This document shows, piece after piece, positions 42,601 through 48,600 of a stretch of DNA of 64,000 nucleotides. Position numbers: made by a program. The stretch covers positions 1,568,001-1,632,000 of the forward strand of contig CAWKKR010000008.1 of NCBI GenBank assembly GCA_963850305.1. The letters are read 5' to 3'. Each line of letters begins with the position of its first letter. The first letter of the stretch is position 1. The stretch comes from an uncultured delta proteobacterium. Lineage in GTDB: Bacteria > Myxococcota_A > Polyangia > Polyangiales > Polyangiaceae.

Positions 42601-45600
42601 ATGCGGTGCTCGTCCCGGAGCCGAGCTATCCGTTGTTCGAGCACCTTGCGCGCTACGAGGGCGTGCGCGCGACGACGTACCCGCTCCGGTACGACGGCGC
42701 ATGGCACCTCGACGTGGCCGAGCTCCGAGCGCGCGTCGGCTCGAACACGCGGGCAGTCGTGGTCGTCAGTCCGAACAATCCGACGGGCTCCTTTCTCAAG
42801 CGGGACGAGCTCGGCGCGCTCGCGGAGCTGGGCCTTCCGATCGTGTCGGACGAAGTGTTCGCGCCGTACGCGTTCGGCGAGGATGCCCGACGCGTCGCGA
42901 CCGCCCTGGAAGCTCGCGATACGCTGGTGTTCGCGCTGGACGGATTGTCGAAGCGGGCCGCGTTACCGCAGTTGAAACTGTCGTGGATCACCGTGGGAGG
43001 CCCTCCTGCGCTGGCCGGCGTCGCGCTCGACGGCCTCGCGCACCTCGCGGACACGTACCTGTCCCCGGGCGGCCCGGTCCAGCACGCGCTGCCCGCCTTG
43101 CTGGCACTCGGTGAAGAGCCGCAGGCGGCCATCCGCGAGCGCACCTTCGCGAACCACGCGACCCTCGTCGCGCGAAGTCGGGGAACTTCAATCACGCCGT
43201 TCCACGTGGAAGGGGGCTGGTACGCCGCCGCCCGGCTTCCGGCGGTGAAGACCGAAGAGGAATGGGTTCTCGGGCTCCTCGACGCCTGCGACGTGCTCGT
43301 GCAACCGGGTTGGTTTTACGACTTCGCGGACGAGCCGGTCGTGGTCCTGAGTTTGCTCACGCCGGGGGCGGACTTCGACGCCGGGCTCGAGCGCATGGCG
43401 GAATACGTCGAGGGAGGGTGAATCCGTCTCAGCGGCGCCGGTGAGCCCGGTGCCCCAAACGCTACCCGCGCCGCGCGCCGCGCCTTCGACGGACCATCTG
43501 GGCTCCCAGCGCGAGAGCGAAGAGGCCCGCATCCAGTCCGCCTTCGCGAGCGTCGTTCGCGCCGATCCGGCACCCGCAGCCCCCCTGCTTCGGCTGGACC
43601 TCCTCTTTCTTCTCATTGTCGGTCGGGCCGCCTTGCCAGTACGCGGGGTCGTCGGTGCTCAGCTCTTTCTTCGGCGGAGGCTGGTCCTGATCCTTCGTAT
43701 CCGAGTCGGTCTTGTCCTTCTTCTTCTCCCCCGTGAACACGACGGCGCGCCGGTCGATGACGTCGTTGTCGCCTTCGAAGACCACGCGCGTCGTTCCGCC
43801 GAGACTCGCGTCGGTACGGCCGTCCTTCACGACGACGTCGTATTCTCCGGCTTCGTAACCGTTCTTGCGCGTCACCTTGAAGGAAAAGCGGGTGCGCTTC
43901 TGGATCTGCCCGTTGCTCGGATCGAGAAATCCGACGTCGACGCTCTCGACCAGGGGCTGCTTGTTCTGGAGGGGTACGTTGCGCAGCTGCGGCCCGTCTT
44001 TGCCGTCGACCAGCGCGCGTTCGTAATAGACCACCGGGGTGAACGAGAACCGCATCGGCAACGTCGCTTCGTCCGGCGCGCGGTTCAAGAAAATCGAGAC
44101 GTCGATGGTCCAGCCGTGACTGTCGCTCTCCTTGAGAGACTTGGTCTTCCACTCCACGCGGCCGCCGGCGATGGCCGACCCGGCGAGCAAAAGCACGCCG
44201 AGGGAGAGAGCCGCGGTCAGAATGCGTCGCGCTGCACCGATCTTCGTCATAGTCGACCTCCGAGGCGTCGACCGTACACCTTCCCCCGCGGATTTCGCGA
44301 GCCGAGCGCACCGAAACCGTCGTTTCAGTCGAGCCCGGGCGGACAAATGCAACGAAACAGCAGCGCGGATTCCCTTCCCGCGCTGACGTACGTCGGACGG
44401 TCGGCGCCCACCACCGCCGGACAGTGCCGCTCGACCGTCACTCCGTCGCGATTCAGCTCGCCCGCGATCAGCCACTCGAGGAGCTCGGTGCCGGGTGCCG
44501 GGTCCGGCTTCATCTCGCGGCCCGGCTCGATCTTGAAGAGGTAGAGGCCCGCGTCGCGCGTCTCGAGCAAGGTCTCGATCTGGCCGTAGGGGGTCTTCTT
44601 GGCGGAGCGTGGAAACGCGCCCGGGGTGCGCCTGACCTCGACGGACGCCGCGCGAGCGCGCCCATCGAGCGCCGCCGGCTTGTCGAGCCGGATGTCGACG
44701 AACTCCGCGGTGGGATGCACTCCGAGGAGCATCGCGGCGAGCTCTTCCGTCGCCATCTCGATGAGCTGAAACCGCCGAAACTTGAGCACCGCGATCACTT
44801 CGTCCGCGGTCACGTCGTAGTCGCAGGTGAGCGCGATGCGTCCCGTCCGACCCGCCTGGCTCAGATCCATCCCGAGCGCGAGATCGAGGTGCACGCGTTG
44901 CTCCCGTTCGCGTTCCTGGGGCCTCACCCCGACGACGCAGTCGATCTCGAGCCCGCGAATTCGAACCAAGTCCATGTGTACTCCCGCGTTACGTCGCGCC
45001 GAGTCCAAGTGTTAGCATGGGGCAGGGGAGCGGTTTCATCGTAGGGGGTCTTGACCCCCGCGGCTCGCTTCGCGACCGCTCCCCCGCCGCCTTCGGCGGG
45101 CTCGCTTGGTTCAAGGGGGGCCTTGCCCCCCGCGGCTTGCTTCGCAACCGCTCCCCCCGCCGCCTTCGGCGTGCTCGCTTGGTTCAAGGGGGGCCTTGCC
45201 CCCCGCGGCTTGCTTCGCAACCGCTCCCCCCGCCGCCTTCGGCGGGCTCGCTCCGCGAGCCTAGTTCCGCACCTCTTTGATCGCTCGGGGACGACGCTGC
45301 TCGTCGATGCGGAACCTACTAAATCGCCGCGGAGGGCCTCGGGTGAAGCCCTCCGCGGCTGCGGTCATCGGATTCAATGCGTCGGTCCGGTCACGAGCGC
45401 GGCCGTGGGCACCGCGCCGTTCGTCCCCGCGTCAGCGGCGGGAGGCGAGTTCGCGGCCGGTGCGACCACCGGCGCGACGTTCGCGGGCGGTGATGCCGCC
45501 GGTGCGACGTTCACCGCGGGCACGACGATGGGCGTCGGGCTAGCGGGTGGAGCGACGACCGGCGCCGTCACGGGCGGCGACGCCGACGGCGCGATCGCCG

Positions 45601-48600
45601 CCGGAGCCGTTGCTACCACGCCGTGTATCGCGGCCTTTTGCCGCTTGCCCATCGTGTGACGGGCCACCCGCGTCGCACGCACCTTCTCCGCGGCGTCTGT
45701 CTTCGACTCCAGGGTGCGCTGAGCCACCTTCTTCGGCAAGAAACCGAAGGAGGCAAACTCCGGACTGTTCTCACCGAACAGCCCCGCCGCATAGTTCCGG
45801 ACGCACGTGAGTATCGCATCCGTCTCGGTACGTTGCGATTCGTCGACGTCGTGAAGCTGCGAAGCCTTCGCCCGCGCAGCGGTCAGCGACGTCATCGTAT
45901 CCACGTGTGCCTGGATCTTTGCTTGCACATCCTTGCTTGCCACGAGCTTGCCCGCGACGGGCATGCTTGCGTCAGGCGCGAGCTTGGCGAGTGCCGAGAT
46001 CACGCTTTGCTCCAGGTTGATGATGACTGTCCTATTTGAATTACCGAACATGACTTCTTCCTTTTGTGAATTGCGGCGTCCGATATGAACGTCGCACATG
46101 AGGTACCAACCAACGGCGAGATTGGATTCTTCCAAAAATACTTTTTTTGAAATTCGGCCCGTCGTTCGAGTCAGTGCCGTTCATTCCGCAGCCCCTCCCG
46201 TGCATCACGCGCAGCCCCTCGCTCGCGCATTTGCAGCGAGTTTTCCGGCATTCTGCGCACGCGCGACCGATCGCGGCGTCGTGCTCATTGCCCGCGATGC
46301 GATGACGGGATCGTGCGGCGCGCCCACAAGGTCCCGCGGTGTGGCACCCAATTCACAGGGTGTGGCAACAAAGATACATACCACGACAGCAAGATCATAG
46401 TGCGCAGCGACGACATCGCGCCGCGTAGTAACGGACCCACGCGGCGTGATAGTCGAGTCTCACGGCGTGGTGGTCGATCCACGCGCCCGACGGAGGTGAC
46501 CTCACGCCGTGTGAAGCGGGAATCACGGCCGACGGAGGTGTTCTCACGCTGTGTGAAGCGGGAATCACGGCCGACGGAGGTGTTCTCACGCTGTGTGAAG
46601 CGGGAATCACGGCCGACGGAGGCGTCCTCAACGGCGCGCGATCCACTTCTCACGGCCGACGGAGGTGACCTCACGCCGTGTGAAGCGGGAATCACGGCCG
46701 ACGGAGGTGTCCGCACGGCGCGTGAAGCGGGTATCGCGCTCGTGAGAACGCGTCCTCACGGCCGACGGAGGTGTCCTCGCGCCGTGTGAAGCGGGAATCA
46801 CGGCCGACGGAGGTGTCCGCACGGCGCGTGAAGCGGGTATCGCGGCCGTGAGAACGCGTCCTCACGGCCGACGGAGGCGTCCTCACGGCGCATGATCCAC
46901 TTATCACGGCCGACGGAGGTGTCGTCACGGCGCATGATCCACTCATCACGACCGACGGAGGTGTCCATCGCGACGCGTGATCCACTTATCACGGCGGACG
47001 GAGGTGTCGTCACGGCGCGTGATCCGCTTATCACGCCCGACGGAGGTGTCCTCACGGTGAGCGATCCACTTATCAGGACCGACGGAGGTGTCCTCACGGC
47101 GGACGGATATGTCCTCACGCTGCGTGATCCAGTTGTCGCGGCGGACGGACGCGTCCATCCCGCGGTCGAGGGGCGGGTCGTCGCGACGTGTGAGGCGCCC
47201 CGGCGCCATGCGGGGGGATCGCGCCGTGATCGTTTGGTGGACGCCCGCGTCTGCCGAGACCTGACCTACGGTTCCTCGGGGAACCCCGCGAAGCTCCTTG
47301 TAGGAGGTCCGGACATGGAAGATGCTCGATGATCTTCCCCTGGGGCAAAGTGGGTCGTCGTTCACCAACCGAGTCCGTGGCGCGGATATACCGCGCGTTC
47401 CTGCGCCAGCGCACGTGGCCGCAGGCGGAGCTCGCGCGCGAGGTGGGCATCGGCGTTGCGGCGCTCCGGAAGCGGCTGGACGAGCTGACCACGCTCGGAA
47501 TGCCGCTCGAGCGGGAGGATGACCTACCGCAGGTCTACTGGAGCGTGCCCGCGACGTGGTTCCCCGACAGCGTCGCACTGGACAAGGACGAAGTCGCGGA
47601 TCTGCTACACGTGCTCTGGCACACGGCGCGGGGGCGGCGCCGCGACCGGCTCCTGCGCCTCGTGCTCGACGCTCGTCGTGATCGCGCGACCATCGCGGCG
47701 ACAGAATCCGCGATCGTGACGCACGAGGTATCGGAAGCGGAAGAGACGTTTCTCCCGATTTTGGAAGAGGCCATGACCGCGAACAGGCCCGTGCGCCTGC
47801 GATTCTACTCCACCGAGCGCGGCATCGTGGAGTCCAGGCACGCGTCGGTGCACCGCGTGGACGTCGGCCCCCCGACGCGACTCGTCGCGACGTGCCACCG
47901 GACGAACGAGCTCCGGTGGTTCCGCGTCGACAACATCGTCGATGTCAGCATCGACCGCGAAACGTCCTTCCGCGCCGCCAGCGACGAAGCTGTTCGTCGC
48001 TTCTGTGCGGACAGCATCGATGGGTTCAGGGGCGCTACCGAGACCGAGGAACACGCGTTCTTCGTGCGTAACCCCGAGGCGCGATGGGTCGCCAAGAATC
48101 TTCTCGCTCCGATGCGGGCAGTGGATGCCCCGGACGGAATTACGGTGTCCGTGACAACTGCCGGAGCGATGCGCGTCGCACGCTTCGTCGTCGGTCTTGG
48201 CGGCGCCGCTCGAGCGGAGAGCGCTCGACTCCGGACACTCGTCGAAGAGCTCGCACGGGGGGCGCTCCGCCGCTCGGCGCAACCTGGACGGCTCGCGAAG
48301 GCAGCCACGGGAATACCTGAACGACCGCGCAGACGCGCGAATAGATGAGGGTGCGGGGACTATGAGTGGGAGTCGGATGCGACGTATCGGCTACGACTAA
48401 TCGAACGAAATGATCATGCAAACGCTACCGCGGAGGCACCGGCGTGGCCCACAGCGCGCCAACATCGAACTCTATGGCCTCGAACGGCACGGCGCGCACT
48501 GGTTCGTCTCCGCGAAACGTTTCGAGCAGGATCCAGCGGTGGTTCTCCAGTGCATACGTCTCGATGATCCGGACCGCGGGATCCACGATCCACGCGAAGC

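Follow-up and report, generated by a model that had tools for sequence, protein, structure and literature searches.

The locus described here is one copy of a self-contained cassette, made up of a non-coding, dyad-symmetric and phased tandem array, a probable promoter and leader, a single gene of the F201 family, and a terminator. The best explanation of the data, to which we give an even chance, is that this 1-2-kb cassette disperses and that a dimer of the F201 protein coats the phased array of its own cassette through putative binding. One F201 dimer would be docked on each unit of two helical turns, and one face of the array would therefore be coated cooperatively. Recognition would depend on spacing, symmetry, and a core of 4-6 bp, which would leave the unit sequence free to drift while the period stays fixed. 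The likely outputs would be autoregulation, which is possible where the array lies upstream, and a centromere-like nucleoprotein patch with the array in either position. A second family, F296, would be a parallel, non-homologous counterpart with a four-turn unit. If true, this would be a further architecture for DNA binding, in which sequence matters less than spacing and symmetry.

Such a cassette would offer a testable explanation for the published puzzle of constant-length bacterial repeats. According to Subirana and Messeguer (PMC8161180), tandem repeats of constant size, 20-21 nt (and 40-41 nt), are found in many bacterial groups, with variable sequence, unknown function, and several, mostly non-coding, families per genome. 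The arrays studied here share these features, i.e., a period of the 20-21/40-41-nt type, variable sequence, and several mostly non-coding families. In the passages on these repeats no partner gene is named (neither "upstream" nor "flanking" occurs in the main text), whereas here the families trace to a gene cassette, and the 21-nt-type repeats are linked to an unannotated protein family that comprises at least 3,781 clusters and has no match in Pfam, NCBIfam, or PDB. Because the repeat families are tied to a gene, the open puzzle becomes a direct experiment. A literature search for a module of array plus gene, with thin coverage of subscription journals, located nothing relevant.

Layout of the cassette

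The window, i.e., the whole stretch of 64,000 nt that was analysed, contains the following features:

45044..45320, no strand: REP-like repeat element of 73-78 bp, adjoining the cassette and outside it (82 clusters genome-wide)
45326..45359, minus strand: terminator-like hairpin, 3' end of the cassette (from sequence and from comparable hairpins at other copies)
45374..46051, minus strand: F201 gene, 225 aa (helix, beta-hairpin, 54-residue helix, basic KxxATRxARHTMG motif, Pro/Ala-rich tail)
46057..46065, minus strand: ribosome-binding site (from the frequency of AAAGGAG in leaders)
46072..46096, minus strand: leader hairpin with a 5-nt loop, candidate RNA or DNA site
46130..46154, minus strand: AT-rich tract, probable promoter region (from sequence and the A+T rise over 81 loci)
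46160..46486, no strand: spacer from array to leader, of which several orphan copies retain the array-proximal 50-130 bp
46487..47156, no strand: phased tandem array, ~30 21-bp units interrupted by four slips of 1 bp
47329..48348, plus strand: WYL-domain regulator gene (Pfam WYL), divergent neighbour outside the module

The array lies 436 bp from the F201 ATG and its unit types alternate, giving a 42-bp higher order with the cores TCACG/GACGGA; all six frames are closed in its distal 450 bp. Its length exceeds the 2-16 units per array given in the initial annotation. Between array and gene, A+T rises to 0.38-0.41 at -140..-80 (81 loci), and AAAGGAG is present in 19 of 81 leaders and in none of the downstream controls. 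Terminator-like hairpins of a similar kind lie 3' of most F201 paralogs and of two orphan derivatives. The view that paralog loci share only the gene had to be revised, as leader and terminator are also common to the window copy and the C11 copy. Neither outer neighbour is a regular companion: only 4 of 79 arrays have a REP-like cluster within 500 bp, WYL genes make up 1 of 144 neighbours of other F201 loci, and the 1.5 kb upstream of the G004 ortholog of the WYL gene contains no F201 match.

The leader hairpin was also considered as an RNA family. A strict pattern fits 11 of 72 leaders and 37 of 4,052 control genes, and the stem covaries in rows that had been selected for pairing. A covariance model searched against 60 other loci returned only ~3 leaders among 95 weak matches; with this poor held-out recovery, the hairpin is a lead and not an established family motif. 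An IHF site was rejected, since the consensus is exact in 1 of 70 leaders and present with one mismatch in 9 of 70, as compared to 5% of controls.

Pairing of array and gene, and properties of the units

All nine full-length F201 paralogs and all four F296 paralogs in this genome have an array upstream, as had been reported; only 54 of 4,438 called genes (1.2%) have an array 100-700 bp upstream, these 13 included. The pairing was overstated as "always" present: a truncated tenth F201 copy has no TRF array, and ~40% of the F201 relatives (26/66) have no clear array, their 21-bp signal not reaching z>3. The F201 family itself is larger than the 97 homologs initially counted, with its clusters defined at 50% identity. 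Among its relatives, a TRF repeat occurs upstream at 38 of 66 loci and downstream at 8 of 69, counts that are not independent as most loci come from few genomes; 34 of the upstream repeats have a smallest period of 21, 22, 42, 44, or 66, and autocorrelation peaks exactly at 21, 42, and 63.

The superfamily is far wider than F201 proper. A remote branch aligns to F201 at 91% in HHalign (reversed control 2.9%), lacks the tail motif that is invariant in F201, and spans loci with 31-69% GC. There, the 21-bp period appears at z>4 upstream of 25 of 45 genes and downstream of 0 of 51, with eight control periods at 0-2%. Natural fusions of two F201 domains also exist (N- versus C-unit 94.9%, C-unit versus F201 97.6%, reversed controls <0.3%), and their array periods are mixed, namely, one of 41 bp, three of 21 bp, and one without an array. 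For F296 relatives, the reported upstream enrichment held (21/26 loci, 20 of them with period 41-43), and a downstream count of 3 in 27 replaces the earlier zero. F201 arrays have a period of 21, rarely 22, and F296 arrays one of 41-43 without a 21-bp sub-period, both compatible with the proposed helical phasing. The period goes with the protein family in F201, remote-branch, and F296 loci, and the notion of array plus gene as one conserved module stands.

F296 is not detectably homologous to F201 at the sequence level: helix lengths hinted at a duplicated F201 unit, but HHalign scored no better than reversed controls and this origin was rejected. F296 has no match in Pfam, and the fold searches found four-helix bundles of a generic kind (Z at best 8.4, with rmsd 2.8 over 98 aligned residues), which is no proof of a new fold. 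The nearest named Atlas cluster is the helical family DUF6261 (PF19775; 0.80, family on 45% of members), a lead only, as F296 fails the Pfam cut-off and the PF19775 profile has no match in the genome at E<=10. DUF6261 has been linked to Porphyromonas HagB/HagC.

Upstream arrays lie at a median of 134-186 bp from the gene in F201 proper, F296, and the remote branch, and F201 array units end ~60-650 bp before the gene or sit downstream of it. The upstream position would suit an operator or enhancer platform for a separate host factor, with copy number tuning the gene and F201 unrelated to DNA. So would the AT-rich tract and, in some loci, a AAATCGAC-N8-GTCGATTT palindrome between array and gene, as well as the absence of a known DNA-binding fold in F201. 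We nevertheless rate this as rather unlikely. Four of five distant homologs with an array have it starting within ~20-40 bp after the stop codon, and the array is therefore not solely an operator. A single host factor needs a conserved sequence, whereas the cores vary from locus to locus; two periods coexist in one genome, split by gene family; and exact IHF consensus matches are as rare as given above. These downstream arrays, the excess of gene-less arrays in the genome, and a Spearman coefficient of 0.05 between array similarity and protein identity (741 pairs) also speak against the initial proposal of mainly a variable-number operator that sets expression.

Below ~60% protein identity, no co-variation between protein and array was detected and array similarity is at the null level, which disfavours strict one-to-one sequence recognition. 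The period is conserved throughout a broad superfamily even though the sequence of the units changes. In L145-L147, a short core alone is conserved; it recurs every 21 bp exactly over 7-11 units, between spacers that have diverged without any indel, and contains a CTA triplet unchanged in nine units. Such exactness, held superfamily-wide across the GC range given above, contradicts the idea that gene-linked arrays are neutral minisatellites hitch-hiking with a duplicated gene. Many arrays are homogeneous and copy-variable and orphans outlast the gene, so the idea may apply to orphans; as a general account it is extremely improbable.

The palindrome claimed for each unit was borne out on array profiles, which are dyad-symmetric at p<=0.05 in 28 of 41 and 16 of 24 cases, and is weak on single consensus units (6/49 F201, 8/24 F296). 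Leaders whose folding is more stable than that of shuffled sequences (z averages -0.99, versus -0.13 in control genes) would be expected if the array were transcribed and acted as RNA, with the basic, Arg/Lys-rich tail of the protein binding repeat hairpins or the leader hairpin. Downstream arrays beginning directly past the stop codon would fit this as well, and an RNA role is considered for a 52-nt class in the text of Subirana and Messeguer (PMC8161180). Half-site variants in family D, however, have no compensating changes across the stems, single arrays contain units of both orientations, and the periods of 21 and 41-43 match turns of B-DNA. A role as RNA is thus very unlikely.

The initial claim that the arrays are non-coding was confirmed by codon and frame tests on many arrays. 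A partnership of the protein with array-encoded peptides of 7-residue repeats could be imagined, since 21 is divisible by three, 9 of 44 units are codon-like (p<0.05), and open frames in 31 remote-branch arrays exceed a column-shuffle null (21 versus 15.4 sense, 19 versus 13.5 antisense). The best frames of the 44 units, however, divide into 22 sense and 22 antisense without a peptide consensus, 8 of the 31 arrays are stopped in all six frames, and periods of 22, 41, and 43 occur together with 1-bp slips. Peptide coding is excluded as a general rule, and we see hardly any chance for it otherwise. The arrays are a source of false gene calls for 7-residue-repeat peptides.

Dispersal and decay of cassette copies

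The census yielded 79 arrays of non-coding type totalling 25.7 kb, after 27 of 106 candidates inside long ORFs or of REP-like nature had been removed; the total length agrees with the 87 arrays and 25.6 kb counted earlier, the number less so. The arrays are private, as had been stated, among gene-linked loci only, as 59 of the 66 arrays without a gene each belong with the array at a single gene locus. Twelve gene-linked array families have such orphans, 11 gene-less arrays at other sites are related to the window array, and many orphans share flanks with their matched gene-linked array as well. Homology of orphan copies to the window locus stops between positions -433 and -308, counted from the ATG. 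Three gene-less arrays retain gene or terminator remnants (the terminator is kept in 2 of 45 orphans, and a truncated gene copy is additional), and derivatives with a deletion from array to terminator are present. Since 59 of the 66 each fit the family of a gene-linked array and three have remnants, the gene-less arrays are decayed cassette copies, and the majority of repeats of this kind in the genome come from them.

The cassette thus disperses in copy bursts and then decays to gene-less arrays. Its distribution is patchy (11 of 151 family genomes, with 1 to at least 26 copies each), and none was found in three same-genus genomes of 98-100% completeness. Neighbour genes are unrelated from locus to locus, and the copies sit on Mb-size contigs amid ordinary genes. 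The window locus lies at the edge of an island, and all five same-genus loci examined lack this island next to folB. The F201 copies are under purifying selection (dN/dS 0.26-0.48 in six of the nine paralogs).

These features would also fit a selfish inheritance element, in which the coated array, as a centromere served by one protein or as a tag for transfer, skews the segregation or horizontal transfer of its own DNA and drives both the bursts and the turnover of unit sequence; single-protein partition systems are known (StbA, pSK1; 10.1101/2022.04.29.490116, as far as described there). This is quite unlikely, as the paralogs are old (50-81% identical) and not a fresh amplification, neither PLSDB plasmids (three single queries) nor viral contigs gave a match, and no partner ParA/ParM/TubZ NTPase or ParB/RHH binder is found among the 144 nearest neighbours of F201 loci.

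Two other types of element were considered and rejected. An IS or MITE (DDE, HUH) is not supported, as there is no catalytic family, orphan ends are ragged and not shared, and flanking direct repeats indicating target duplication occur at just 2 of 68 elements. CRISPR and TIGR arrays combine conserved repeats with spacers that were each acquired independently, and their partner is a nuclease or a protein with a Nop domain; here, the spacers are diverged copies of one another, F201 has no nuclease or Nop domain, and Rfam gave no match at gathering level. Separately, an IS481-like element is present in five copies, every one of them at an array, and the arrays serve as its landing sites.

The F201 protein and comparable systems

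Sequence searches of F201 against Pfam, NCBIfam, and PDB gave no match and revealed none of the known DNA-binding families, HTH and RHH among them, which counts against the coating model. So do the relatives without a clear array, the mixed periods of the two-unit fusions, the loss of the tail motif in the remote branches, and a dispersal for which neither a transposase nor shared ends nor general target duplication accounts. The protein is predicted to fold as helix, hairpin, and long helix and to form an antiparallel coiled-coil homodimer with a score of 0.72 (best of three controls 0.00); of the structures used to set the score mark, 20 of 30 solved homodimers attained it, as did 1 of 23 single chains. 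Runs share at least 65% of their contacts, pLDDT is at least 76, and the modelled dimer is two-fold symmetric, with a conserved G20-F102 contact in the interface and the basic tails outside it. Foldseek (best E 0.34, prefoldin) and VIA (best Z 6.6, rmsd 2.5, 52 aligned) gave generic matches only, and an absent fold match is no proof of a new fold.

The dimer would be ~6-8 nm long, as compared to a repeat of 7.1 nm (21 bp x 3.4 A); this length is arithmetic from standard rises (42-54 helical residues x 1.5 A) and not from model coordinates. An unlikely but far-reaching extension of the coating model is that the cassettes are cross-phylum chromosomal "ruler" elements, in which the length of the coiled-coil dimer sets the two-turn period and the protein polymerises on its own satellite as a one-protein centromere-like patch favouring inheritance or transfer, with dead copies forming the constant-length 21-nt repeats of bacteria. 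If true, bacteria would have a counterpart of the centromeric satellites of eukaryotes, in which length is conserved but sequence is not constrained.

Several plasmid systems resemble the proposed module. In the F plasmid, sopC sits downstream of its genes. It consists of 12 repeats of 43 bp that each contain an inverted repeat of 16 bp (PMC3177203, on sopC/SopB), and in this is very like the F296 arrays, whereas the cassettes have no ParA/ParB gene (F201 neighbours checked) and no conserved unit sequence. In StbA of R388 and Par of pSK1, one small protein without an NTPase uses upstream phased repeats as both operator and centromere; StbA, as described in that report, is plasmid-encoded and has an HTH, and its 9-bp direct repeats recur every 11 bp (10.1101/2022.04.29.490116); no homology to F201 was detected. 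KfrA of the IncU plasmid RA3 is, like F201 as modelled, an alpha-helical oligomer whose gene is preceded by a repeat array, and it autoregulates and contributes to maintenance (PMC7783346). It is plasmid-borne, with an N-terminal HTH and five 9-bp direct repeats overlapping the promoter, whereas in F201 no HTH was detected, its array units are dyads of 21 bp, and its many copies are chromosomal. In the model only, F201 shares a coiled-coil dimer with binders of the KfrA/StbA type.

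Pairing of arrays with F201 and F296 genes

The F201 gene of the window (F201 being an unnamed family of proteins of about 200 aa) lies downstream of a tandem array, among the following features (window positions).

45044-45320: REP-like palindromic repeat, 73-78 bp, with a tail segment
45374-46051, minus strand: predicted F201 gene, 225 aa
46072-46096: leader hairpin, five-base loop closed by C-G; relatives add an outer GAGGG/CCCTC stem
46487-47156: array of about 30 units of 21 bp, upstream of the F201 ATG
49546-54118 and 59356-60372: CRISPR-Cas genes, GSU0053-type and with Cas3 in pieces, plus a repeat-spacer array (about 14 units)

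The near end of the array is 436 bp from the ATG, and its units are of alternating types with four 1-bp slips. The genome has nine F201 paralogs of full length and a tenth, truncated copy; the window protein is 50-81% identical to its paralogs, and dN/dS is 0.26-0.48 (6/9 compared). The initial annotation placed an array upstream of every full F201 paralog and of every gene of F296, a separate unnamed family of about 296 aa, and this was confirmed in 9/9 (period 21, 22, 42 or 64) and 4/4 cases, respectively; genome-wide, only 54 of the 4,438 genes called for this analysis have an array upstream. In other genomes, 86 profile hits yielded 80 F201 loci whose N-terminus is intact, of which 72 are foreign. 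A TRF repeat was found upstream in 38 of the 66 relatives with enough upstream DNA (smallest period 21 at 29 loci) versus 8/69 downstream, and autocorrelation gave 40/66 versus 5/70; a clear array is absent in about 40% of relatives, and the loci are not independent, since many stem from two genomes. For F296 relatives, a repeat was present upstream in 21/26 and downstream in 3/27 loci. The array-gene pairing is real and wider than reported, its arrays are non-coding as a rule, and the function given below is inferred; that the arrays are neutral repeats is regarded as highly improbable. Two tandem F201 pairs in another genome (G142:C47:117300-118332 and G142:C40:91727-94055) have no TRF array before either copy.

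F201 was found in 11/151 genomes of the family; copy numbers range from 1 to at least 26, up to 26 candidates having been scored per genome, and no copy was found in three same-genus genomes of 98-100% completeness. F296 occurs in 63/151. The F201 family comprises 3,781 clusters at 50% identity and has no match in Pfam, NCBIfam or PDB. Some longer homologs (P0147, P0231 cluster; 295-345 aa) carry added sequence, and one is titled 'TIGR02266 family' at source. No family recurred among the 144 genes nearest to F201 loci. At each of the five folB loci fetched from the same genus, the genes after folB are homologous to ones about 19-22 kb off in the window genome; the cassette (array, promoter/leader, one gene, terminator) therefore lies at the edge of an island. 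This island holds WYL, Uma2 and CRISPR-Cas genes, the CRISPR-Cas system probably being broken because cas3 is split over at least three ORFs. The REP-like repeat makes up about 82 genomic clusters; same-genus genomes have it too.

Conservation of period and symmetry

Weak F201 homologs were found in another family by a phylum search. In five distant homologs the F201 unit is duplicated internally (HHalign: N versus C unit 94.9%, C unit versus F201 97.6%, reversed controls below 0.3%), and a sixth is a single unit of 115 aa (80.8%). The array lies upstream of the gene at L144 and begins right past the stop codon at L142 (period 41 bp), L145, L146 and L147; none was seen at L143. At L145-L147, copies of a 4-6-bp core are spaced 21 bp apart, free of indels, and the spacers between them have diverged. 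With the 115-aa protein as query, 80 of 166 metagenome loci were fetched, leaving 57 without near-duplicates. This remote branch (alignment to F201 91%, reversed 2.9%; GC 31-69%) has the 21-bp period at -250 to -50 in 25/45 loci versus 0/51 just downstream, eight control periods giving 0-2%; the medians for its arrays are 10 units and a gap of 134 bp to the ATG. Array profiles have dyad symmetry at 28/41 F201 and 16/24 remote loci; when consensus units were tested more crudely, the signal was far weaker. The similarity of two arrays bears no relation to the identity of their proteins (rho 0.05, 741 pairs), with just a slight rise above 60% identity. Judged from these comparisons of sequence, period and symmetry are conserved and the sequence of the arrays changes. 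No 21-bp sub-period was found in F296 arrays.

Peptide coding by the arrays is not the rule, although single loci may differ, and we find it hardly credible as a general explanation. Over 44 units, the most codon-like frame was as often sense as antisense (22 each), with no peptide consensus; 9/44 were codon-like at p<0.05. Array periods of 22, 41 and 43 occur, and in 8/31 remote-branch arrays none of the six frames is free of stops. The remote branch has more open frames than a column-shuffle null (21 vs 15.4 sense, 19 vs 13.5 antisense), which probably overproduces stops.

A role of the array as RNA is considered very doubtful. The leader hairpin is present in the window and many relatives and is enriched, but a model built from it failed to generalise. 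A conserved motif pair, AATCGA/TCGATT, 16 bp apart and of the AAATCGAC-N8-GTCGATTT type, precedes F201 by about 115-185 bp in leaders L023, L046, L098 and L111 (several genomes) and is a candidate factor site.

Protein models and possible function

AlphaFold2 predicts for F201 a helix (7-24), a hairpin (29-38), a long helix (39-92) and short helices (97-101, 114-133, 136-139; pLDDT 82). The homodimer model scored 0.72 (best control 0.00), with at least 65% of contacts agreeing between runs and pLDDT of at least 76; the homodimer mark was reached by 20/30 solved homodimers versus 1/23 single chains. The modelled dimer is antiparallel about residue 63, residue 20 facing the partner's residue 102 (both conserved), and the basic segment 114-139 is outside the confident contacts. 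By arithmetic from standard rises, 42-54 helical residues would extend over 6-8 nm and 21 bp over 7.1 nm. Remote branches retain the coiled-coil core and the period yet change the tail, so that the period follows the core. For F296 the model is a helical bundle, and no homology to F201 was detectable; the named Atlas cluster nearest to F296, DUF6261 at 0.80, is only a lead.

We regard as the likeliest, at about even chances, a mechanism in which one F201 dimer would dock on each unit, so that dimers would cover one face of the array and recognise it via spacing, symmetry and a short core. On an upstream array, the dimer may repress its own promoter; on an upstream or downstream array, dimers may form a centromere-like patch. 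That the array instead serves as a platform for a host factor is unlikely. As far as the available descriptions go, KfrA, StbA and sopC have a similar layout, but the cassette here shows no HTH match, no NTPase and no plasmid location. Selfish segregation or transfer is considered rather improbable. The arrays match the class of repeats, constant in length at 20-21 nt and variable in sequence, in the available part of PMC8161180, and scattered intergenic satellite families are described for Leptospira in that of PMC6749651. In the literature searches, no accessible text described the pairing of gene and array; the supplements of PMC8161180 and the same authors' earlier survey may list partner genes.

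Gene-less arrays and an IS481-like element

From 106 candidate arrays, 27 were dropped (inside long ORFs or REP-like), leaving 79, of which 13 are gene-linked and 66 gene-less (orphans). The arrays had been described as private to each locus, which does not hold: 59/66 orphans match one gene-linked array (0-13 orphans per array), a few of these being split halves of the same array and one pair maybe an assembly duplication. Orphan C7:157719 groups with the window array's family. Orphan flanks are often common to the gene locus, with ragged ends between array and promoter. Three derivatives, in which the gene 3' end and terminator are fused to the array (C1:603488), the terminator to array and leader (C8:649490), or the 3' half of the gene to a leader piece (C8:1103137), show the route from cassette to orphan. 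Array-only capture may also occur, because only 2/45 orphans tested retain the terminator. Flanking direct repeats were present around just 2/68 elements.

Several further observations concern single orphans of this genome. C8:416821, C8:436018 and C8:1003693 have in common one junction to a fragment that resembles a transposase C-terminus, presumably of the IS91/Y2 type, suggesting a single capture that was then copied. C11:110112 and C7:1000452 are bordered by direct repeats of about 123 bp of adjacent gene sequence. By a contig start, both arms of an inverted duplication (C1:3459-8190) carry a 22-bp array; this duplication could be an artefact of assembly. In array family D (C8:1288239 and C8:768553), the 6 bp that separate the inverted half-sites are found either way round, as micro-inversions. 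Several orphans often adjoin small genes that, by eye, resemble toxin-antitoxin, DUF86 or Uma2 genes.

A 387-aa element, which we take to be IS481-like, is located as follows.

C5:129110, C8:147736, C8:769223, C8:980706, C8:1184001: full copies
C1:642303, C4:254696, C5:274381, C8:1325175, C8:1530189: right-end remnants

Every full copy is either inside an array or directly beside one, and two of the five show 4-bp duplications; of the remnants, four adjoin arrays and the fifth a degenerate repeat. The arrays hit belong to at least three families, and arrays with 50-bp margins make up 3.1% of intergenic DNA. Insertion of this element looks targeted to the arrays.
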